DNA of 64,000 bases from Clostridia bacterium. Lineage in GTDB: Bacteria > Bacillota > Clostridia > Oscillospirales > UBA644. The stretch covers positions 49,549-113,548 of the forward strand of contig JAGASR010000035.1 of the NCBI GenBank assembly GCA_017621705.1, read 5' to 3'. This document shows positions 1,814-51,900 of the stretch, one piece after another. The notes under the pieces were generated by a model. It was not told the origin of the DNA. It did no database searches and worked only from the letters and a program-made list of their open reading frames with translations. Positions within the stretch are counted from its first letter, which is position 1, and every line of letters starts with the position of its first letter. Made by a program: the position numbers and the translations under genes.

Positions 1814-1829
1814 GATAGATTGGGATTGG
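1814..1829. repeat. terminal half-copy (last 16 nt only) of the 41-bp cassette junction element
   Basis: gatagattgggattgg matches 13/16 positions of the right half of the 2695-2735 copy. It directly abuts the HIT stop codon at 1830, as the full copies do. Confidence 0.6.
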
Positions 1830-2282
1830 CTAGGTGAAATGTTTCTTCATTAGTGTATACAGTGTTTTTTTATCATCATCGAGTAAAGAAGTCTCTTTTT
1901 TCAAAGCGTAATGGTGAGCGAACTCGGTATCTTCATAGGAGTGATTGTTAATTACAATCGCATTTTTGTATCGAGGTCTCACATGTAAATGTAAATGAGG
2001 ATTAGGTTTTGTTTCTTTATAAAAGTTATTTAATAAACAACTCCAATTACTCAATTCAGCTCCTAATACTTCCTTATAGACGTATTCTAATCTATCTATG
2101 ATTGTTTTCAAATCAATCCACTCAGAAACATTTAGTTCTGAAAGACTTCCGCAATGCCTATTCAGCACTAAAATACATCTACCTACATAGTCCTGTACAT
2201 CCGCTAAATAAACAGACCAATGTAATGATTTATATAATAACCATTCATTTTCTTTATAATCACACCATTCGCACATATTCAT
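1830..2282 (-). CDS. HIT (histidine triad) family protein; cassette 6
   Basis: Has the HxHxHxx triad HLHLHVRPRY. ATG at 2280-2282, with RBS AGGTG 12 nt after the junction element. Confidence 0.8.
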   Translation of the reverse strand: MNMCEWCDYKENEWLLYKSLHWSVYLADVQDYVGRCILVLNRHCGSLSELNVSEWIDLKTIIDRLEYVYKEVLGAELSNWSCLLNNFYKETKPNPHLHLHVRPRYKNAIVINNHSYEDTEFAHHYALKKETSLLDDDKKTLYTLMKKHFT

Positions 2283-2294
2283 CGTTCACACCTA

Positions 2295-2335
2295 CAAATG
2301 CTTATTTATCGAGCTGTTCGATTTATTGGAATCTG
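2295..2335. repeat. 41-bp cassette junction element, copy S1
   Basis: caaatgcttatttatcgagctgttcgatttattggaatctg. Nested inverted repeats. Lies between the stop of the 2337 ORF and the start of the 2282 ORF. Confidence 0.9.
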
Positions 2336-2336
2336 T

Positions 2337-2678
2337 TTATTTGCTCTGTTCCGTTATGTCAGGCTCAAAGATCCAGAAAGCATTATCAACCAGCACTTCA
2401 ACCGTGTTGTTATTTCCGAAAACATATAAGTAACCTGTTCCGAAATTTGATTGATCATTTTCAACAGGAAACTCGGTGCCATTAACCGCAGAAGTGATTT
2501 CGCCATCAAATGTCATAATATCAGTTTTCAATCTGTCGCTTTCGTCACCCGTATTTTCATATAAAACACCGTCGATCATTACCATAAGGGGCAGATCGTA
2601 TTTTACATCATTGTTATTACACCCAACAAATGCCAACACGAATATCAACGATAAAACCAATATTATCAACTTTTTCAT
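2337..2678 (-). CDS. small lipoprotein, unknown function; cassette 5
   Basis: Signal peptide plus lipobox MKKLIILVLSLIFVLAFVGC. RBS AAGGAG sits immediately after the junction element. Confidence 0.75.
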   Translation of the reverse strand: MKKLIILVLSLIFVLAFVGCNNNDVKYDLPLMVMIDGVLYENTGDESDRLKTDIMTFDGEITSAVNGTEFPVENDQSNFGTGYLYVFGNNNTVEVLVDNAFWIFEPDITEQSK

Positions 2679-2694
2679 ACAATCACTCCTTTGT

Positions 2695-2735
2695 CAAATT
2701 CATATTTATCGAACTGTTCGATTTATTGGAATTGG
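2695..2735. repeat. 41-bp cassette junction element, copy S2
   Basis: caaattcatatttatcgaactgttcgatttattggaattgg. Contains the perfect 15-bp palindrome atcgaactgttcgat (2708-2722). Confidence 0.9.
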
Positions 2736-3665
2736 TCAAATTGAAATTATTGCTTCCACAAACTGGTTTGCCTTTTCTGTATGAATACCGTGCCCACAAT
2801 CAAATTGCTTGATTTTCATATTTTCAATCAAGGCATTGACTCTCTGCAAATCTTCATCAGACAATGCGCCTTGCAACAAACCATTCTCACCAATCGTTGT
2901 TTTTGCTTTCATAAACAGAGTGTCGCATTTGATTTTAGAAAGAAGGTCATTGTAATCAACAGTGTCATTGAACGAATCGTTATAAAAGGCTTCTCCAAAA
3001 TGAGGGTCATAATATTGCAGGCCATTAAAGCCTTCTAAAAACTTTTTAGGCCAAAACAGAACTTTCAGATTTTTGTCGGGATGTTTGGCTCGGTATTTCA
3101 ATGCGAAACCACTCAGTTTTTCTCTGACAGTTTCTCTGGATTCATCGGGAAAGAAATTCCAGCAATACTGATTCTTGAAATAATAATAGACGAAATCCTT
3201 TTCCACATCCTGTAAAAGGAAATTATGGCAGACAGAGGATAAATCCTTGTAATTGTATGTATTGTATCTTCTTTCGCCCCAGCTTGAGAAGAACGGAGGG
3301 TCTTCCAATATTAGTTTGGTGCATCTGGGAGATTGTGCTGCAATGTATGCTGCAATCAGTCCACCTGACGAATGACCCAACACGGCAACAGAATCACAAA
3401 TCACATTTTCAATAAAGTCCATGATGTCGTTGCCGATACTGACCAGATTGTATTTTTCCGGATTGCGGGAACTCTTTCCGTGCCCGTAATAATCTACCAT
3501 GTACACATGGTAGTACTTTGCAAGTTTTGTAACAACATTATTGAAGCTACAGGAGTTTGTCCCCTGGGCATGAAGCAGTAGTAATTTGTTTTTTGCGGTT
3601 CCAACCTCATAGTAGTTCAAAATACTGCTATCATCAATTTTATACTGTGCATTATGAATCTTCAT
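2736..3665 (-). CDS. alpha/beta hydrolase fold protein; cassette 4
   Basis: Nucleophile elbow GHSSGG and a C-terminal His region CGHGIH. 309 aa. Confidence 0.8.
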   Translation of the reverse strand: MKIHNAQYKIDDSSILNYYEVGTAKNKLLLLHAQGTNSCSFNNVVTKLAKYYHVYMVDYYGHGKSSRNPEKYNLVSIGNDIMDFIENVICDSVAVLGHSSGGLIAAYIAAQSPRCTKLILEDPPFFSSWGERRYNTYNYKDLSSVCHNFLLQDVEKDFVYYYFKNQYCWNFFPDESRETVREKLSGFALKYRAKHPDKNLKVLFWPKKFLEGFNGLQYYDPHFGEAFYNDSFNDTVDYNDLLSKIKCDTLFMKAKTTIGENGLLQGALSDEDLQRVNALIENMKIKQFDCGHGIHTEKANQFVEAIISI

Positions 3666-3683
3666 GTTGTATACTCACCTCGT

Positions 3684-3724
3684 CAAATTCTTATTTATCG
3701 AACTGTTCGACCTATTGGAATTTG
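3684..3724. repeat. 41-bp cassette junction element, copy S3
   Basis: caaattcttatttatcgaactgttcgacctattggaatttg. Confidence 0.9.
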
Positions 3725-3725
3725 A

Positions 3726-4331
3726 CTAACTCTCCGATTGTTCCTGTAACAATTCAAATTGTTCCGATGTTACAAGCCGCTTTAATGCAGTCATTGCTTT
3801 ATGATACTCATTTTCATAATGTGAGAACGTATCCGTTTTTTGTAGTTTGAATCCAATAGAAAGATATAAGAAAATGGCTTTCCAACTCCATGGCTGTGTA
3901 TGAATATAGACAGGAAGATTCTCTTGCTCTTTAAAACAATTCATAGTTGCATAACATAAGGCTTTTCCTAACCCCCGCCCATGATATTCTTCATCCACAA
4001 CCAGCCAGTGCAATGAAGATACGATAGACTCTTTGCGTCTATCTTGCCATGCAATACAAGACCCTACTATAAGGTTATCTTCATTCAGAAGAAAAAGAAT
4101 ATTGTTTATTAACGGACGATTCCGTAAATATGTTGAAATAAAGTAACTTTCTGCTTCTTCCAAAGACTCAAAGTCTCCAATGGAACACTCTAATTCTGCC
4201 CAAGCTTTTTCATATCCACTTTTATAGGGTACAATGGAGAATCCTTTTGGTAACACAACATCATTGTGTTGATAAGTATCACATCTTAAAATCGTGTTAT
4301 AAAAGGGTATTGTTCTATCCAACACTACCAT
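3726..4331 (-). CDS. GNAT family N-acetyltransferase; cassette 3 (start uncertain)
   Basis: Acetyl-CoA motif WLVVDEEYHGRGLGKAL. The ORF track starts at TTG 4340. ATG 4331 lies 1 nt from GGAGGG. GTG at 4325 has better RBS spacing. Confidence 0.75.
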   Translation of the reverse strand: MVVLDRTIPFYNTILRCDTYQHNDVVLPKGFSIVPYKSGYEKAWAELECSIGDFESLEEAESYFISTYLRNRPLINNILFLLNEDNLIVGSCIAWQDRRKESIVSSLHWLVVDEEYHGRGLGKALCYATMNCFKEQENLPVYIHTQPWSWKAIFLYLSIGFKLQKTDTFSHYENEYHKAMTALKRLVTSEQFELLQEQSES

Positions 4332-4342
4332 GCCCTCCAAAT

Positions 4343-4383
4343 CAAATTCTTATTTATCTAACTGTTCGACTTATTGGAATTTG
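4343..4383. repeat. 41-bp cassette junction element, copy S4
   Basis: caaattcttatttatctaactgttcgacttattggaatttg. Confidence 0.9.
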
Positions 4384-4384
4384 T

Positions 4385-4660
4385 CTACTTCCTTTTTTGT
4401 TTAAGTAAATATGCTACCAAATATGCAATGCCTGTTAGTATTACACCAAGCACGATATGTCCAGGCATAACCAAAATAAAGAACATTGCTCTATGCTCGC
4501 TGTAACTAATTATGGTTGGCATTTCGATAGCACTGTATGCAACGGCCAAGGCTGTTGAAACCAACGGAGAAATCCACAGTAGTTTTCTCTTAACAAAGAA
4601 AACTGCAACCACCGTAAGAACGGGTATTACACCCCAGAAAATAATGCTCCACCAATTCAT
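4385..4660 (-). CDS. small integral membrane protein (about 91 aa, 3 predicted TM segments); cassette 2
   Basis: Hydrophobic segments WSIIFWGVIPVLTVVAVFFV, ISPLVSTALAVAYSAI and FFILVMPGHIVLGVILTGIAYLVAYL. The start was moved to ATG 4660, which follows AAGGAG. The leader GACAAAGGAGTG..ATTGTATG is the same as for the 2678 gene. Confidence 0.65.
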   Translation of the reverse strand: MNWWSIIFWGVIPVLTVVAVFFVKRKLLWISPLVSTALAVAYSAIEMPTIISYSEHRAMFFILVMPGHIVLGVILTGIAYLVAYLLKQKRK

Positions 4661-4678
4661 ACAATCACACTCCTTTGT

Positions 4679-4720
4679 CAAATTCATATTTATCGAACTG
4701 TTCGATCTATTGGGAATTAG
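4679..4720. repeat. cassette junction element, copy S5 (42 bp, one extra g)
   Basis: caaattcatatttatcgaactgttcgatctattgggaattag. Confidence 0.9.
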
Positions 4721-4723
4721 TGA

Positions 4724-5086
4724 TTATACCGGTGTTCCCACTTCGATCAAGTTGCCGTCCAAATCGTAAAATCGGATTACTCGTTGCCCCCAACTATGTG
4801 TCATAAGATGATTTACATATTCAATATCGGGATACAGTCTTTCTAATTTTTCGACAAAGGATTCGATATCCTGCTCCTCAAAATACAATTCGCAAGAGTT
4901 GCTCTTCGGAACAATATCTCTATCTAAAAACGATTTCCATATTTTCTCGTCTTGAAGGACAAGACCTTCCGTTAAAATCAGATTGCCGTCGTTGTCAAGC
5001 ACCAAATCTATACCAAATAAATCGTGATAGAATTTTCTCGATTTCTCTATATCTTTAACAACAATCAGAATGTCCTTCAATTTCAT
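4724..5086 (-). CDS. VOC/glyoxalase-bleomycin resistance family protein; cassette 1
   Basis: N-terminus MKLKDILIVVKDIEKSRKFYHDLFG and C-terminus VIRFYDLDGNLIEVG are typical of the glyoxalase-fold beta-alpha-beta-beta-beta unit. Confidence 0.75.
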   Translation of the reverse strand: MKLKDILIVVKDIEKSRKFYHDLFGIDLVLDNDGNLILTEGLVLQDEKIWKSFLDRDIVPKSNSCELYFEEQDIESFVEKLERLYPDIEYVNHLMTHSWGQRVIRFYDLDGNLIEVGTPV

Positions 5087-5099
5087 ATAATTTCTCCGT

Positions 5100-5123
5100 C
5101 AAATTCTTTTTATCGAACTGTTC
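5100..5123. repeat. proximal half-copy (first 24 nt only) of the cassette junction element
   Basis: caaattctttttatcgaactgttc. The sequence then diverges (tgtaagtatagg). It is complementary in extent to the half-copy at 1814-1829. Confidence 0.8.
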
Positions 5124-5127
5124 TGTA

Positions 5128-5155
5128 AGTATAGGTACATCTTTTTCGGTTACAA
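5128..5155 (-). promoter_or_regulatory. candidate promoter reading into the cassette array
   Basis: On the minus strand: TTGTAA (5155-5150), 16-nt spacer, TATACT (5133-5128). The -10 ends 4 nt before the half-site begins. TATACT is the -10 used at other promoters in this window. Confidence 0.5.
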
Positions 5156-5195
5156 ATGATTTATCTAAATCATAACAATCGATTTTATTCGGGGG

Positions 5196-6569: not shown

Positions 6570-7280
6570 TTATTTGGCTGTATTCTGACCGTAATAAGCT
6601 GTCGCGCCGTGTTTACGGTAAAAATGACGTTCAAGAAGAACCTGATCCATCTGATTTGTGCGTGTCATATCGGAAACGGAGAAAGTCAGCATATTCATCT
6701 GAGCGACACGTTCAAGAACGAATGCGTTTTCAACGGCTTTTGCGGGAGTTTTGCCCCAGACAAAAGGAGCGTGCTGAGAAACGAGGACTGCGGGGCAGTA
6801 TTCGTAATTGAGATTCTGCTTTTCGAATGTTTCGACTATAACAGTACCCGTATTTTTCTCGTAAGCACCGTTTATTTCTTCGGCAGTAAGTTTTCTTGTT
6901 GCGGGAACGGCGCAGGAAAAATAATCCGCATGAGTCGTTCCGAGAGGAAGAATGCTTTCGGAAGCCTGTGCGAAAGCGGTAGCGTAAGTGGAATGAGTGT
7001 GAACAACGCCGCCGATCTCGGGGAAATTACGGTAAAGCTCGAGATGAGTGGGTGTATCAGAACTGGGACGGAGCTTGCCTTCGACAATATTTCCGTCAAG
7101 GTCAACAACGACCATATCGTCTTCGGTCATAATATCGTAATCGACGCCGGAGGGCTTGATAACGACGAGACCGCTTTCTCTGTCGATACCGCTGGCATTA
7201 CCCCAGGTGAGCATAACGAGGCCGCATTTAACGAGTTCTATATTTGCGATAAAAACGTCTTTTTTAAGTTGTTCGAGCAT
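6570..7280 (-). CDS. araD: L-ribulose-5-phosphate 4-epimerase
   Basis: Class II aldolase/AraD pattern: TWGNASGIDRESGLVVIKPSGV, PSSDTPTHLELY and HTHSTYATAFAQA. Confidence 0.9.
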   Translation of the reverse strand: MLEQLKKDVFIANIELVKCGLVMLTWGNASGIDRESGLVVIKPSGVDYDIMTEDDMVVVDLDGNIVEGKLRPSSDTPTHLELYRNFPEIGGVVHTHSTYATAFAQASESILPLGTTHADYFSCAVPATRKLTAEEINGAYEKNTGTVIVETFEKQNLNYEYCPAVLVSQHAPFVWGKTPAKAVENAFVLERVAQMNMLTFSVSDMTRTNQMDQVLLERHFYRKHGATAYYGQNTAK

Positions 7281-7410: not shown

Positions 7411-8832
7411 TTAACCTGCTTCGCCCCAGACAGCTTCGATGCCGCGCATAGAGGGAAGAAGATGCTCTTCGATAAGAGCTTCGATCTCGTCCCTGTGCGC
7501 TTCGATATATTCGGCGGTCGTTTTGTTGTAAGTGAGCCACTCGTGCATCTGATCATACATCTGATAATGGAAATACGTGTAGTCCGCACTGAAGAACATA
7601 TTATAGAAAACATCCGAGTCGCGCTTATCGTAAAAATAGTTACGGGTCATGAGCGCGAGGATATCGTCGAGCGTCTGATACTCTTCGAACGGTTCATAGA
7701 TAGCGCTTATAATTGCGGCTGTAGCTTCGGGATGTTTAGACATACGTGAAAACGAAATACATCTTTCGATATTATGAAGGAAACCGAAAGTATATCCGGG
7801 TTCGACATCCGGACCGGTGGGCCAGGTTACGAGACCGAAGTTATCCATTTCCTTTGCAATTCTCGAGCCGAGACCGATTATGCTTTCCGAATAGAGAGAG
7901 CCGAGAACGGTCGTTCCGTTGATAAGAGCATCAACGGGTTCGGTCGTACTGTCGATAGTATGAGCAAGAGGTCCGTAGAAAATATCGCGGCCCGTATCCA
8001 TCGCTTTGATAGCTTCCGGAGTGAAAAAGCCGTATTCATATTCGCCTTTATCATTCTTTTCAACATAATGAGAACCGTTGGAAAGAAGGAACATATCGCC
8101 GAAAGTATGAGTACTGCAGGTCATGGCATAGTGTTTAACGTCACTGCCTTCGGCAACATAGTAAAGCTCGAGGACTTCCTTGAATTTGTCCCATGTCCAT
8201 TCACCGTTTTCGAGAAGATCACGTGGATCAGTCGCACCGAGAGTTGCTATATGGTTTTCATTGATAACGATCGGACAGCCGAACGATACGGAAACTTCGG
8301 GCCAGAGCAGAGGCACGATGCCGTAAAGGTCATCTTCATAATAAATAACCTCGAGCATATTTCTGTAGCCCCATTTGGCTTCGTTTCTGTAATCTATATA
8401 TTCTTCGATCTCGGACATACCTACGAGCATACCGAGACGAGCGACATCCGCCCACATATCGGAAATACCGGAAATAACATCGCAGAAAAATGCACCGCTC
8501 GCCGATGCCGCAACGAAATTACGGCAGGAATAATAGTTATCGGTATATTTGATATCGAGCTTGCAGTTAAGCCTTTCCTGAACATCTTTAAGGCGCTGAA
8601 CCGCCATATCGCCGAACTGAGTATCAAGTTCGTAACCGAGACAGCTGTCAAACGCAAGAGCCGCAGCCGTAAGACCGACTTCATAAACGATCTCTACGCC
8701 TTCAAGATCAAGTTCACCTGCTTTTTTGACAAAATCAACGTCAAAAACTTCTTCTTCCGCAGAAGCGTTGCACGCCGTTGCAATCAAAGAAATAAGCATC
8801 GCAAGAAGCAATAGTTTAGTTATTTTTTTCAT
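7411..8832 (-). CDS. solute-binding-like lipoprotein, tandem paralog 1 (family assignment tentative)
   Basis: The start was moved to ATG 8832 (MKKITKLLLLAMLISLIATAC lipobox, RBS GAGGAG). Alignable along its full length with the three neighbouring genes. The GEWTWDKFKEVLELY region resembles type-1 sugar SBPs. Confidence 0.6.
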   Translation of the reverse strand: MKKITKLLLLAMLISLIATACNASAEEEVFDVDFVKKAGELDLEGVEIVYEVGLTAAALAFDSCLGYELDTQFGDMAVQRLKDVQERLNCKLDIKYTDNYYSCRNFVAASASGAFFCDVISGISDMWADVARLGMLVGMSEIEEYIDYRNEAKWGYRNMLEVIYYEDDLYGIVPLLWPEVSVSFGCPIVINENHIATLGATDPRDLLENGEWTWDKFKEVLELYYVAEGSDVKHYAMTCSTHTFGDMFLLSNGSHYVEKNDKGEYEYGFFTPEAIKAMDTGRDIFYGPLAHTIDSTTEPVDALINGTTVLGSLYSESIIGLGSRIAKEMDNFGLVTWPTGPDVEPGYTFGFLHNIERCISFSRMSKHPEATAAIISAIYEPFEEYQTLDDILALMTRNYFYDKRDSDVFYNMFFSADYTYFHYQMYDQMHEWLTYNKTTAEYIEAHRDEIEALIEEHLLPSMRGIEAVWGEAG

Positions 8833-8854
8833 AGTTTTCTCCTCTTTTATTTTA

Positions 8855-8883
8855 AGTATAACAGATATACGATGCATTGTCAA
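8855..8883 (-). promoter_or_regulatory. promoter of paralog 1
   Basis: TTGACA (8883-8878), 17 nt, TGT-TATACT (8860-8855). Confidence 0.75.
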
Positions 8884-8886
8884 TAC

Positions 8887-8916
8887 AAAAAACTCCCCGA
8901 AGGAATTCTTCGGGGG
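8887..8916 (-). terminator. terminator of paralog 2
   Basis: Minus strand: CCCCGAAG-AATTC-CTTCGGGG followed by AGTTTTTT. Confidence 0.8.
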
Positions 8917-8932
8917 ATTTATACCGTAAAAA

Positions 8933-10345
8933 TTATTCAGCTTTGCCGTAAACAGCTTCAAGACCGCGCATTGCGGGAGCGGCATATTTTTCTATGTTTT
9001 CCGCAGCATAGTCTTCGTTTGATTCAAGATATTCCGTTACAGATTTATTAGAAGTAAGCCAACCGCCTAAAAGACCCGACATACCTTCGTTGAAATACAT
9101 ATAATAAGAGTTAATATACATTCCGTAATAAACTTCGGCATCGCGTCTGTCGAAGAAATAAGTCCTGGTCATAAAATCAATAACAGAGTCCATGTTGGGA
9201 TATTCTTTAAACGGTTCATAGAGTGCGCTGATAGCCACTGCGGCGGCTTCGGATTGCTGTGAACTTCGAGAAAAAGCGATACAGCTATGAATATTTGAAT
9301 AATATCCGAAAACATATCCGGGTTCAACATCCGGTCCATGCGGCCATGAAAGAAGACCGAAATTTGACATTTCACGCGCAATTCTGCCCCTTACGCCAAC
9401 CACTTCGTATGATCTTAAAGCACCGAGCACGGTTTTTCCCGAAAGCAGATTATCCGTGCAAACATCGTATGATTGCTTACAGATTGTATGAGAATTTGGG
9501 CCGTTAAATATTTCAATACCGCGTTCCATGGCTTTCTTTGCTTCTTCAGTATATAAACCGGAAACATATTCACCTTTTTCGTCTTTTTCAACAAATGTAG
9601 AACCGTTCGAAAATGCGAACATGGAAGCAAACATTCCTGCATCTGCTGTGAGAGAATAATGCTTGATCTCTCCGCCTTCTTCAACATAATATCTGCCGAG
9701 ACAATCTTCAAAAACATCCCATGTCCACTGCTTATTTTCAATATATTCTCTGGGGTCTGTCTCACCGATAGCCGCAATAAGATCTTCATTCACGACAATG
9801 GGGTCACGAATATAAACGGAAAGTTCCGGCCAAAGAAGAGGAGTAAGACCGTAGATATCGTCTTCGTAAGCCATGATTTCAAGCATATTCCGATAGCCCC
9901 ACTTCGATTCATTTGTATAATCGATATAATCTCCGAGCTCGGAAAGGCCGACAAGCATACCGACTCTCGCCGCTTGAACCAACGGTCCAGAAGCGCCCAT
10001 GGCTACGTCTGAAATAAACGTACCCGAAACAGCGGCGGTTAAATATTCCGTAGGATCTCCGACGCCGCTCAATAATTCAAATGTACAGTTAAGATTTTTT
10101 TCAACCTCATCAAGACGTTCAGCCGCCATATCAGCAAAAACCGTATCAATTTCGTAACCGAGGAAAGTATCTGCCTGACTTTCTGCAAGATATACCTTAT
10201 AAACAATATTTGCGCCTTCAAGATCTACACCTGAAGAACTCGAAGTAAAATCCATATCAAAAACTTCGGGCTCGGTAGAACCGCACGCAGAAGCAAATAC
10301 GGAAATAAGCATTGCAAGAAGTAATATTTTAGCTATCTTTTTCAT
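8933..10345 (-). CDS. solute-binding-like lipoprotein, tandem paralog 2
   Basis: MKKIAKILLLAMLISVFASAC lipobox. Shares blocks such as KWGYRNMLE, YEDDxYG, LLWPE and FSR with paralogs 1, 3 and 4. Confidence 0.6.
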   Translation of the reverse strand: MKKIAKILLLAMLISVFASACGSTEPEVFDMDFTSSSSGVDLEGANIVYKVYLAESQADTFLGYEIDTVFADMAAERLDEVEKNLNCTFELLSGVGDPTEYLTAAVSGTFISDVAMGASGPLVQAARVGMLVGLSELGDYIDYTNESKWGYRNMLEIMAYEDDIYGLTPLLWPELSVYIRDPIVVNEDLIAAIGETDPREYIENKQWTWDVFEDCLGRYYVEEGGEIKHYSLTADAGMFASMFAFSNGSTFVEKDEKGEYVSGLYTEEAKKAMERGIEIFNGPNSHTICKQSYDVCTDNLLSGKTVLGALRSYEVVGVRGRIAREMSNFGLLSWPHGPDVEPGYVFGYYSNIHSCIAFSRSSQQSEAAAVAISALYEPFKEYPNMDSVIDFMTRTYFFDRRDAEVYYGMYINSYYMYFNEGMSGLLGGWLTSNKSVTEYLESNEDYAAENIEKYAAPAMRGLEAVYGKAE

Positions 10346-48903: not shown

Positions 48904-51900
48904 ATGAAAAGATCTGTTATTCGAAGTATTTCGGTAATTCTTGTTTTCAGTATAGTATTTTCGCTTGCGGCGGTATGTTTTGCGCTCCCGGGAGCGGCAT
49001 CTTCCGCACTGAAAAGTTCAAGAGAGCTTCTCGGTGAATACATATCCGAGCTGTATCTCAAAGGTCCGTCCGTATCGATGTCGGTACGCGAAAACATGAT
49101 AGCGAAAGGCCTTGATAAAAACGGACTTCTCGAAAAGAGAGAAGCGTTTGACCTGCGCCTTTGTTCTTCCGACGTAAATGACGGTTATTTCTTCACCGAC
49201 AAAGAAGAATTCCTCGATATATTCGGAAAGACAGACTTCATTCTTCTTGACGGTGTTTACACATGGTACGCAGGTGTTCCCGAAGCGAAAAAAGCAGGCC
49301 TCGGAATAACCCAGAACGATCCGCTTATCCGTTACAATATCTCCAATGCGCTCAACTTTGCGATCGACGTTTACGGTTATGCTTCGGAAGACAGTCTCGA
49401 GCTCTTCTCCGATAAATTCGACGCATCGAGAAAAGAACTCGTTTCCTTCGCGATAGACTGCATATATAAGATCCTGCAGGGGCTCGAAGATCAGATCGGC
49501 AGCGGAACAAATAAACCGATCTGCTACAGAAACGAGTTTACTGACACATTTTTAAGCGCGGACAGCGGAATTTATCCGTATTTTGATGCAAGATTCAAGA
49601 AAAGCACTCCCGTAATGTCCGGCTACTACGATGCCGATGCATACAAAGAAAAAACTCACGATTATTCAACCGTAAAGAACTCTGCGACCACTGGTGCTCT
49701 TCTTTCGTATTTCGAGACTGCATATGCAACCCTGAAAGCGCAGAAAGACGGCGGACTTCTCTACTATGATTTTGCGGAATATTACGATAAGGCTTTCGCC
49801 GCATATCTCGATCTCTGCTCCGCAATATTCAAATCCGAAACCAATACCCCCGACGTTACCGAAAAAGCAAAAGCGTATCTGAAGCTCGTAAGCCTCGGAG
49901 ATATCTTTGCGGAATATATACTCCCCTACTCCGATATATATTCGACGGAACTCAATGCCGTAACGATAAACTATATCACCATCAAAGCGCTTATCCGCTT
50001 TATAGACGGTGACCCTTATCTTCTCAATTCCATTTCTCTTTCTTCGATGCAGGATCTCATCAGCAATTTCACACAGTCCGTTTCCAGACTTGCTCCTGTT
50101 TCGGAATATGCACTCACTTCGCAGATATTCACGGATAACGTCATAACCGTTTCTATGATGAAAGAGTATCTCGAAGATTACCAGGGCATTATCGGCGATG
50201 AAAAAGTCGCACTATATAACAAAGCAAAAGAAGTTATCGACAAACTTTCATCTGTTTCGACATCGGGAGTTACCGTAATTTCTCCCACAAGATATTTTTA
50301 CACCGCAGACGGAACTGCGGTCGAAAGCGAAAAATTCTCGTTTTCCGTCGTCCCCTCGTCCGTGATGTACCTCGGAATGATCGAAGAAGCAAAGATTCTC
50401 TGCGCAAAATTCAGCGAGGAAGTCGAACCGTCCATTCCCAAAGTTCTGACTCAGACTGATAAAGATCTTCTTCAGGTCAAAGATTTTATCGACAGCTATT
50501 CATTCCTTCTCGGCATTCACGCACCCATAGTCTGCGAAGCGACAGGAAATATTTCTTCCGCAAAAATGACCGATTCCGCAAAAGCAATTCTTTCATCGAT
50601 TCTCAAAGATATGTGGTCGGCAAAAAAGATTACGGACGAAGATATTTTCGATATAGAAGAAATGTTCTCCGCAGCAACAGAATTCCACGCATATAAGTCG
50701 GGAAAAGCTGCAGATTTCCTCAATTCGGAAAGAACCGTATCCCTTGCAAACCACAAAGAGTACCTCAACGACAGCAAGATTATCTTCGACACTCTCAAGG
50801 CATCGATTCCGATGATCGAAAAGAATATGTCGAAATACAAACTCGCGCTCGAATATATCATTTCCAATATCGCAGACCTCTGGAAGCTCAAACAGGAGTC
50901 CTCAAGCGGCAACTATTACAGCACATCAAATGCCGTAACATCTGACGGCACGGATCCCGCAAACCGTTACAACTACAAAGCAAATGCGCATGACACAATG
51001 CTCACCGAAATAAACGGGCTCATGTCAGCAATAAAAGGATCAGCAGTCTCCGATACAGAAACGCTTATTTGCTACAACAGGCTTTCCGACGCGGTAAAAG
51101 CTCTTCTCAGCGATTACGGCACAGACTGCTACAACAACTTCATCTACAACCTTCTCGAGCAGACCTCCCTTTATTACAGTTCGGAAGATCTCGGATATAC
51201 AATGTTTAAATCCATGCTCGAAAGCAAAGGTCTTACGCTCGACAGATATATCGTTGTTGATGATAACGGACAGGTTTCCGCATCCGAACTCGTATATAAA
51301 TATTTCGCATTTACGGTCAATGCCGTTTCGAAAGATTCGACAAGGATCAACAATATCTACACTTTTGCGGGCAATAAGATCATGATAAATCTCATAACCC
51401 CGCTTGATGTAATTGTTAAAAACAAAGGCGAATATATCGGCAATTATGCAAGAGACAAGGCAGAACAGGTCAATGCGGATATGAATGAAGCACAGCTTCT
51501 CGTATCATCCGTCAACACCACTATCTCGACCGTAGGTTACGATATCACCGTCGGCGAAGCGGAAGCTCTTCTTGCAAGACTTTCGCAGGTCAATTTCTCT
51601 CTTGCGAATTACTCCCTTTCCTATATTGCATCACACAAAGCAACGACTCTTGATGCGATAATAGACAGAGCAAAGGCAAAAACGATCGATCAGACCGACC
51701 GTACACCGTATTATCTTCTCATATGCGACCGTTTCCAGACAGCATACTCCAATGCTCTTAACGTAAGCTACGATAAGACCGTTCCCCTCACAGAGATAGA
51801 CGAAGCGGCGCAGACCCTTACAAAGATGCTCAACGCGATGGAAGAATACGAAAGATCGGTTACCGGCAATATCATAACAGTAAAAGATCTTGCATCGAAG

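Follow-up and report, generated by a model that had tools for sequence, protein, structure and literature searches.

A minus-strand gene array punctuated by a 41-bp site

The DNA examined here is a 64-kb stretch from a Clostridia bacterium (contig JAGASR010000035.1, forward-strand positions 49,549 to 113,548), which we call the window and number from its first letter. Close to its beginning, between a gene for a protein of 396 amino acids (aa) and lacZ, six short genes on the minus strand alternate with copies of a 41-bp site. The original prediction had read this block as an integron-like array of single-gene cassettes, bounded by complementary half-sites and with no recombinase in view. The block was analysed in the window and compared with other loci, which are designated below by numbers with the prefix L. 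Its features are the following, in order of position.

1777–1807, both strands: bidirectional intrinsic terminator shared by lacZ (plus) and the array (minus); found by scan, 12-bp stem, T-runs on both strands
1814–1829, plus: right half-site (positions 26–41), 3′ junction of the array, abutting the stop codon of the last cassette
1830–2282, minus: cassette 6, 150-aa HIT-like protein with an HLHLH motif; Pfam HIT match below threshold (E = 0.07)
2295–2335, plus: site S1, full, the most diverged copy (nhmmer E = 6e-11)
2337–2678, minus: cassette 5, 113-aa predicted lipoprotein, without family match
2695–2735, plus: site S2, full (pattern scan, nhmmer)
2736–3665, minus: cassette 4, 309-aa alpha/beta hydrolase (Pfam)
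3684–3724, plus: site S3, full, equal to the family consensus; identical 41-mer also in L024
3726–4331 (open reading frame, ORF, to 4340), minus: cassette 3, GNAT acetyltransferase, called as 199–201 aa (Pfam)
4343–4383, plus: site S4, full (pattern scan, nhmmer)
4385–4660 (ORF to 4687), minus: cassette 2, 91-aa membrane protein, without family match
4679–4720, plus: site S5, full, one inserted nucleotide making it 42 bp; the window and the sister species L156 are collinear up to here
4724–5086, minus: cassette 1, 120-aa VOC/glyoxalase with a bleomycin-resistance-like fold (Pfam); common to the sister species
5100–5123, plus: left half-site (positions 1–24, left arm and core AACTGTT), 5′ junction of the array
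5128–5155, minus: head promoter-like element TTGTAA-16-TATACT (promoter scan)

Five full copies of the 41/42-bp site start at 2295, 2695, 3684, 4343 and 4679, all on the plus strand and exactly where they had been predicted. When the 64 kb were scanned with a 31-nucleotide (nt) degenerate pattern allowing at most three mismatches, exactly these five sites were returned, against an expectation of 0 from 100 shuffles, and no sixth full site was found in the window by nhmmer or with a position weight matrix (PWM). Six minus-strand ORFs fill the intervals between sites and half-sites with the regular packing that had been described: the stop-to-site gaps are 0, 1, 0, 1, 1 and 3 nt, the site-to-start gaps are 12–18 nt according to the gene calls, and the cassette units measure 400, 989, 659 and 336 nt.

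Both ends of the array carry the expected complementary half-sites. The half-site at 5100–5123 is clear, retaining positions 1–24 of the 41-bp site and diverging thereafter. Its counterpart at 1814–1829 retains positions 26–41 with 12–13 of 16 consensus matches; it ranks 16th of about 128,000 positions scored with a right-arm PWM, about six unrelated positions outscoring it, and it is convincing only because it stands in exact register behind the stop codon of the last cassette. Among the predicted gene identities, VOC/glyoxalase, GNAT and alpha/beta hydrolase were upheld by Pfam, whereas the HIT protein has the HxHxH motif but only a sub-threshold match. Pfam gave no family for the 113-aa and 91/100-aa ORFs of the window. 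The block is richer in AT than both flanks, with a GC content of 0.33–0.40 compared to 0.45–0.49. The proposed head promoter, which sits in a 44-nt segment, and the terminator shared with lacZ, directly beyond the tail end of the array, were both recovered by our scans. Ten more metagenome contigs of the same species carry the array at 99.96% identity, and it is therefore not an assembly artefact.

The array block is an insertion relative to related loci

Orthologous loci were reached through homologues of the flanking 396-aa protein. Two of them, L160 (56% protein identity) and L161, come from distant relatives; they contain araD and the 396-aa homologue, with a terminator and the convergent lacZ immediately after, and have no array. 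L160 aligns to window positions 7280–5583 and 1763–1501 with nothing between, and the array block of the window is an insertion relative to this locus. The sister species represented by L156–L159 (76% protein identity) has an array at the same place. Window and L156 share one alignment of 88.8% identity, which extends from the 396-aa gene through the glyoxalase cassette and ends at window position 4677, two bases before S5; past this point L156 is unrelated and carries a different GNAT-like cassette. Relatives thus differ in gene content in the manner anticipated for a cassette locus, being either empty or sharing the first cassette only, and the breakpoint between them coincides with the repeat. 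Despite the same first cassette, the head segment also differs, the sister species having a different, 25-nt segment with a TATAAT in place of the 44-nt segment of the window. The array of the window sits between the stop of the 396-aa gene and lacZ's own terminator, which is a harmless, transcribed position.

The site has two inverted arms around a 7-bp core

Loci were retrieved by exact motif, and the pattern used for the metagenome scan fixed positions 18–27 and 30–39 of the site, not 1–17. Across 85 distinct full sites, conservation is found in AATTC (positions 3–7), TTT (11–13), C16, AACTGTTCGAC (18–28) and TATTGGAATT (30–39), that of positions 18–27 and 30–39 being overstated because they were fixed by the search pattern, while positions 8–10, 14, 15, 17, 29, 40 and 41 are variable. 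The site is made of two imperfectly inverted 17-bp arms, with outer boxes AATTC/GAATT and inner boxes AAC/GTT, around a 7-bp core, AACTGTT, and its symmetry is centred on a single base, T21. Mirror positions 3–7/35–39, 11/31, 16/26 and 18–20/22–24 are complementary in 81–96% of sites; others rarely are (8/34 in 4%, 12/30 in 13%, 14/28 and 17/25 each in 18%). With −1.3 kcal/mol and z about 0, the commonest variant shows no folding as a single strand; mirror pairing being poor as well, attC-like folding of the site was rejected.

Judging from these base patterns, the site looks like a sequence-specific, partly symmetric, double-stranded protein-binding site of 17 + 7 + 17 bp. Its layout matches that of a simple tyrosine-recombinase core site, with inverted arms, a 7-bp overlap and junctions within positions 18–24. 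It resembles loxP, FRT and dif in having inverted arms around a 6–8-bp spacer, exchange in the spacer and arm differences that give direction, and is unlike them in its longer arms, the two conserved boxes in each arm and the nearly palindromic core.

The site and its packing rule recur in gut and rumen Clostridia

Scanning the GTDB representatives, one genome for each species, yielded 25 stretches, 24 of which keep the whole 41-mer well outside the searched pattern. The genomes bearing the site are nearly all labelled Clostridia (Lachnospiraceae, Acutalibacteraceae, Oscillospiraceae, Ruminococcus, Faecousia, Congzhengia), and single metagenome-assembled genomes (MAGs) with the site are labelled Bacilli, Spirochaetota and Paludibacteraceae. 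The Clostridia comprise both MAGs and isolates, and two cultured carriers are Lachnospiraceae bacterium IMSAGC_003 and Bacterium D16-50. As the original prediction supposed, the motif is not scattered: there is no extra copy in the 64 kb, and in all 25 species-representative genomes with an exact match the site is confined to one stretch of at most 8 kb. At least 120 metagenome contigs carry the site, and the carriers of the cassettes are gut and rumen Clostridia contigs, well over a hundred in number. No match to the site was found in IMG/VR viral contigs, PLSDB plasmids or a phage collection, nor did any Rfam family match it.

Around 134 full sites, 173 of 177 adjoining ORFs have the cassette orientation, and the median spacing is 2 nt between stop codon and site and 13 nt between site and start codon. 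Short contigs bear arrays of up to five sites, and many contigs terminate at a site.

A diverged subfamily of the site was seen at L164 9960–10530, at L170 1860–2500 and 3720–3800, and in L166 and L168. Its outer boxes are CAAATTAC and GTAATTTG, and it went undetected by the hidden Markov model (HMM) of the site; the family is therefore broader than sampled. There, the right arm of a cassette is separated from the left arm of the following one by an extended −10 promoter (TGGTATAAT-like), and the units of this subfamily appear to carry their own promoter.

Exchange occurs between the arms and reshuffles cassettes

Right-arm variants track the gene whose stop codon they abut: the variant ...GGAATTGG goes with the GNAT cluster c4 and CGACTTATTGGAATTTT with cluster c2. 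The left arm, for its part, changes with the downstream gene. Since the arms segregate with their own genes, exchange takes place between them, in AACTGTT. Many arrays and single cassettes are bounded like the array of the window, by a left half at the 5′ end and a right half at the 3′ end, with locus-specific flanks. Left halves end at positions 20–25 and right halves start at positions 16–22, and the flanks beyond are unrelated.

The same cassettes were found in various company. An AAA_18 kinase-like cassette occurs in at least eight different neighbour combinations, and one identical 164-aa AAA_18 cassette protein in at least four genomic contexts. The hydrolase cassette of the window has a 94%-identical protein in L134, beside a site and with a different downstream neighbour, and its GNAT cassette an 85%-identical protein in L125, with a different upstream neighbour. 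Together with the second cassette of L156, these hydrolase and GNAT cassettes recur in unrelated contigs at 85–98% protein identity, where they adjoin sites but have other neighbours.

Single insertions do not have the same 7 nt at both ends (AACTGTT and TTTTATT in the window, AACAGAA and AACTGTT in L116), and target-site duplication by a DDE transposase was rejected on this ground. The window keeps the cassette core at its 5′ junction and has at its 3′ junction the target-like TTTTATT, not AACTGTT; the reverse arrangement is found in L174. Such core patterns result from heteroduplex resolution by recombinases that tolerate non-homologous overlaps, as in Tn916 and CTnDOT. By analogy, the window and L174 would fit a mismatch-tolerant recombinase of this type, and the apparent tolerance of pseudo-sites resembles the Tn916/CTnDOT integrases more than Cre.

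These observations bear on the reading of the 41-mer as a selfish or regulatory palindrome (an operator, an mRNA stem-loop, or a sequence of the kind of repetitive extragenic palindromes or miniature inverted-repeat transposable elements) within a horizontally acquired operon whose genes are not mobile cassettes. An imperfect palindrome placed exactly between stop codon and ribosome-binding site (RBS) would agree with it, as would the moderately good folding of the window copies (z = −2 to −5.5) and a weak promoter-like TTCCAA-17-TAAATA inside the site, which is a by-eye reading only. This reading is nevertheless very improbable, given the few and clustered copies per genome with none outside the array in the 64 kb, the association of the same gene with many neighbours, the arm-specific linkage, the complementary half-sites at the ends of a block whose locus is empty in relatives, and a commonest variant that no longer folds and has no match in Rfam.

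A model for cassette assembly

On the basis of the site, the packing rule, the insertion of the block, the reshuffling of cassettes and the central position of exchange, all established above, we propose that site-specific recombination at a double-stranded 41-bp site built up the array of six single-gene cassettes, none with a promoter of its own, at window positions 1814–5123, a reading to which we assign a probability of roughly 0.7. A cassette would consist of core, left arm, RBS, ORF and right arm, and would pass through a circular intermediate carrying one complete site. Integration of the circle into a resident site would extend an array, and integration into a pseudo-site sharing part of the core would create a new array with complementary terminal half-sites. 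Transcription of the array would proceed from the head promoter to the tail terminator. The enzyme would act in trans, being encoded at another place in the genome or on a different mobile element; it is presumably a tyrosine recombinase that would cut at the arm/core boundaries 17/18 and 24/25 and tolerate mismatched cores, as enzymes of the Tn916/CTnDOT type do.

Several findings weigh against this model. The suggested search with the site consensus delivered further arrays, but no recombinase family was found to recur beside them among about 145 loci and about 20 more. Some gene boundaries within arrays have no site, and several 5′ junctions (L142, L057, L174) lie inside the left arm, not in the core. 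No circular cassettes were found, the fetched contigs of up to 6 kb being without a terminal direct repeat. Cases of the same flank beside different cassettes, considered as proof of exchange at fixed chromosomal sites, were downgraded: some of these flanks belong to the termini of other mobile elements or are short terminator segments shared between loci, so that they do not prove cassette movement, and identical flanks with different cassettes are partly Tn916-like and IS21-like elements inserted into sites. Promoter-bearing heads and terminator-bearing tails recur in different contexts, which is outside the model's account. The overstated conservation of the positions fixed by the search pattern belongs on the same side.

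Search for the recombinase

The absence of a recombinase from the block extends to the whole window, as profile HMMs, built from the recombinases of the fetched loci, detected no tyrosine recombinase, large serine recombinase or IS110 transposase among its six-frame ORFs. All ORFs of the approximately 145 loci were clustered and a Pfam census was made of 113 larger ORFs (230–650 aa) and 135 cassette ORFs; the approximately 20 additional loci, gathered around one widespread cassette with flanks of up to 10 kb, were examined for recombinases. The 113 larger ORFs comprise five tyrosine recombinases, three large serine recombinases and two IS110 transposases, none of the recombinases being IntI-like. 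Recombinases are the commonest family in this set, though few, and one rve/IS21-like transposase near sites was found separately from this census. The recombinases near sites are only about 20–30% identical to each other and are differently placed.

The integrase of L142 was rejected as the cassette enzyme. The 3′ end of a tRNA-/tmRNA-like gene (..GGTGTTCAAATCACC..CGCCA) lies at L142 13040–13090 between the integrase gene and the cassette head, and the integrase is therefore part of an ordinary tRNA-linked island. Three further sources of the enzyme were rejected: the Tn916-like Int-Xis end and the IS21-like element found near sites, both of which are other elements, and the serine-recombinase/MobL element of L174, a separate element with a cassette as cargo. 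The latter (L174 9884–16859, about 7 kb), whose genes include those for a MobL-family protein and for a large serine recombinase containing DUF4368, interrupts an ABC-transporter ATPase gene, leaving fragments of 115 and 118 aa, and carries an AAA_18 cassette with half-sites.

Right half-sites adjoin other mobile elements at L050 4998–8603 (also in L051 and L092) and at L087 83–2549. One of the adjoining elements is a Tn916-family Int-Xis end with a 434-aa integrase (Integrase_DNA domain), Tn916-Xis and DUF2958; another is IS21-like, with rve and a Mu-transposase C-terminal domain. In addition, two insertion sequences of the IS110 family, whose transposases are 45% identical, are inserted in 41-bp sites (L107 3457–5026; L008 about 301–1900), in L107 exactly between right arm and core. 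Elements of several kinds seem to insert preferentially at these sites. The 5′ non-coding part of the L107 element contains GGCCTGAC-GGAATTCCAATAGG...GTTCGACAAACA-GTCAGCC, in which two strands match the site arm; by analogy with IS1111-attC elements, these stretches look like the target guides of a bridge RNA. The likeness to IS1111-attC elements lies in two IS110-family elements residing in the 41-bp site with 5′ non-coding stretches that match it; this parallel concerns elements that parasitise the sites and does not extend to the cassette mechanism itself.

The enzyme is most likely a trans-acting tyrosine recombinase tolerating mismatched cores. We rank a dedicated or element-borne tyrosine recombinase first, host Xer second, and a serine recombinase or HUH enzyme third.

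It is unlikely that the same cassette system depends on a housekeeping Xer-type recombinase of the host, its sites acting like pdif. In Acinetobacter plasmids, pdif sites of 28 bp (11-6-11) imitate the dif site of the host and bound modules in inverted orientation. The arrays share with pdif modules the small size of the gene modules, the short and simple two-arm sites with a short spacer, a recombinase that is not adjacent and the presence of resistance genes. No dedicated recombinase adjoins the arrays, and a conserved host enzyme would be in keeping with the occurrence of the site in several families of Clostridia and in a MAG of Bacilli. Unlike pdif, however, the site measures 41 bp, with 17-bp arms and a 7-bp core instead of 11-6-11, its copies stand as direct repeats where pdif modules are bounded by inverted sites, and the arrays are chromosomal and operon-like. 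An Xer mechanism would also put many dif-like sites per genome away from the terminus, and to our knowledge the 41-mer is unlike the published Firmicutes dif or difSL sequences. Xer modules are an accepted precedent (PMC7399989).

Nor is it probable that the enzyme working at the centre of the palindrome is a large serine recombinase or an HUH relaxase/Rep from a mobilisable element. Such enzymes are at hand: large serine recombinases are encoded no more than a few kb from sites in L089, L127, L136 and L174, the MobL-family protein of L174 has been mentioned, and L042 has a protein with a MobV-like HxDE..HxH motif beside a half-site. Array ends at −10 boxes and hairpins could moreover reflect a preference for single-stranded targets. 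The att sites of large serine recombinases are 40–50 bp long and evenly symmetric about a central crossover dinucleotide. The present site fits this description in its length and in the inner and outer box of each half-site, but its axis of symmetry passes through a single base and not through a dinucleotide, and its junctions are spread over positions 18–24, that is 7 bp, and not confined to one phosphodiester bond. The large serine recombinases are, in addition, 21–24% identical and inconsistently positioned. For an HUH enzyme, the hairpin potential of the site is not conserved, which counts against hairpin-dependent recognition.

Relation to integrons

Integrons are the textbook system of single-gene capture and are almost confined to Gram-negative lineages. 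Their attC sites are 55–140 bp long, have outer RYYYAAC and GTTRRRY boxes, and conserve a folded structure with extrahelical bases rather than a sequence. Crossover occurs at the 3′ end of attC (G|TT of R′), leaving nearly the entire site attached to the cassette, behind the ORF. The present arrays are like integrons and CALINs (cassette arrays lacking intI) in their promoterless, mostly single-ORF, tightly packed and co-oriented units, with a head promoter and a site at every junction, in a shared pool of cassettes that is reshuffled, in a cargo rich in GNATs, small unknown proteins and resistance genes, and in a site specifically targeted by IS110-family elements. They are unlike integrons in their sequence-conserved, double-stranded site of 41 bp without R″/R′ boxes and with a central crossover, and in the lack of an adjacent integrase, an attI or a single platform, arrays and single cassettes being found at many loci and in mobile elements. 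Their hosts, moreover, are Clostridia, in which integrons hardly occur. No conserved attI is shared by the array heads.

Among the five defining features of integrons that could be tested, promoterless, mostly single-ORF, co-oriented cassettes with a head promoter are present and the other four are absent. The arrays are therefore not to be filed as integrons or CALINs, although in function nothing outside the integron family comes closer to an integron cassette array. The integron-like locus of the original prediction thus stands as a locus of mobile cassettes and falls as a member of the integrons or CALINs: it is an analogue with a central crossover and without attI/intI platform. The site class distinct from attC, which had been predicted too, is borne out by a conserved sequence, a fold that is not conserved and the absence of the outer attC boxes.

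A classical integron remnant, in which unusually short attC sites would be recombined as folded single strands by a distant IntI, is extremely improbable and already contradicted on the defining features of attC. The promoterless single-ORF co-oriented cassettes would suit it, as would a cargo with GNAT, glyoxalase, Cass2 and ANT/APH proteins and the targeting of sites by IS110-family elements in the way that IS1111-attC elements target attC. The 41-bp site has, however, CAAATTC and GAATTTG as its outer boxes, not RYYYAAC and GTTRRRY, and the RYYYAAC-like ATCTAAC and GTTCGAC adjoin at the centre, not at the ends. It is conserved in sequence, not in structure, its crossover is central with each arm belonging to a different cassette, and no IntI-like gene was found in the census described above. 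Integrons are, besides, almost absent from Firmicutes, in all of which IntegronFinder 2.0 reported one complete integron and a few CALINs (PMC9024848).

A literature search, which included the literal sequence, found no description of the site or the system, and the system is apparently undescribed. We lean towards the view that gut and rumen Clostridia have independently evolved a cassette system of their own, with a lox/dif-like 41-bp site, a trans-acting recombinase, small operon-like arrays at many chromosomal sites and in mobile elements, and a large shared pool of small-molecule-modifying genes that includes resistance to lincosamides, aminoglycosides, streptogramins and macrolides. There is a substantial chance that this is an independent invention with its own enzyme.

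Cargo of the cassettes

The cargo set was drawn from loci L001–L155. Its 135 distinct cassette ORFs have a median length of 163 aa and include at least 23 GNATs, eight SAM methyltransferases and eight XRE-type regulators; AAA_18 kinases, hydrolases, NUDIX, GrpB and Cass2/GyrI-like proteins are found among the remainder. Resistance genes were recognised by NCBIfam in two Lnu(C)-like lincosamide nucleotidyltransferases (9e-104), an ANT(6) (3e-135), a Vat streptogramin acetyltransferase (4e-103) and a macrolide glycosyltransferase (2e-82), to which Pfam adds ANT(2″), APH and a beta-lactamase-fold protein.

The AAA_18 cassette protein of L023 (3140–3637) has homologues in 7346 clusters at 90% identity (E ≤ 1e-20), some of them with more than 1000 members. 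Almost all lie on contigs of 1–3 kb, and this is therefore a very abundant gene of gut and rumen metagenomes that is hard to assemble.

We know of no comparable answer so far to the question of how single accessory genes are traded in Firmicutes. A second and mechanistically different cassette system in dominant gut and rumen anaerobes would, if real, change the search for resistance reservoirs, as tools of the IntegronFinder type are blind to such arrays. It would also explain the poor metagenome assembly of these small genes, as in the 7346-cluster family found mostly on 1–3 kb contigs, and its compact 41-bp recombination site might serve as a genetic tool for Clostridia. The question of the enzyme is now directly testable, by looking in complete genomes for recombinases that co-occur with the site model.

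Heads, tails and surroundings of the arrays

A strong hairpin directly follows the array in 13 of 25 independent tail flanks, compared to 3 of 25 control windows. At the other end, a −10 box matching at least five of six positions lies within 25 nt of the core in 10 of 22 independent heads and in 4 of 22 controls. Five of these 10 heads have a perfect TATAAT, four of them with a TG extension, often 0–1 nt from the core; L006, L142, L174 and L177 provide examples of head −10 boxes. Some end segments recur between loci: a head segment of 31–33 nt with a TGCCATAAT −10 box is the same at L050 11140–11175 and L098 2816–2848, and a 65-nt tail segment with a terminator hairpin (...GAGGAAATTACAAAATTTCCTCATATCTTTTTTT) the same at L050 4998–5061 and L075 101–164. 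The recurrent short non-coding end modules also include L065 917–939. These segments may be ORF-less modules or cassettes, or may reflect target preferences (melted promoters, hairpins) or selection for expression.

Just past the stop of the 396-aa gene, window positions 5168–5187 hold a 20-nt imperfect palindrome, AAATCATAACAATCGATTTT on the plus strand, which is kept in L156. Visually it recalls the central part of the site; as a relic site it was rejected, being supported by neither the PWM nor the nhmmer scan. Upstream of araD (window 7411–10345 and onward; L026 954–6976), four to five tandem paralogues of about 470 aa, with lipoprotein-like signal peptides and without a Pfam family, are kept in all relatives of the locus.

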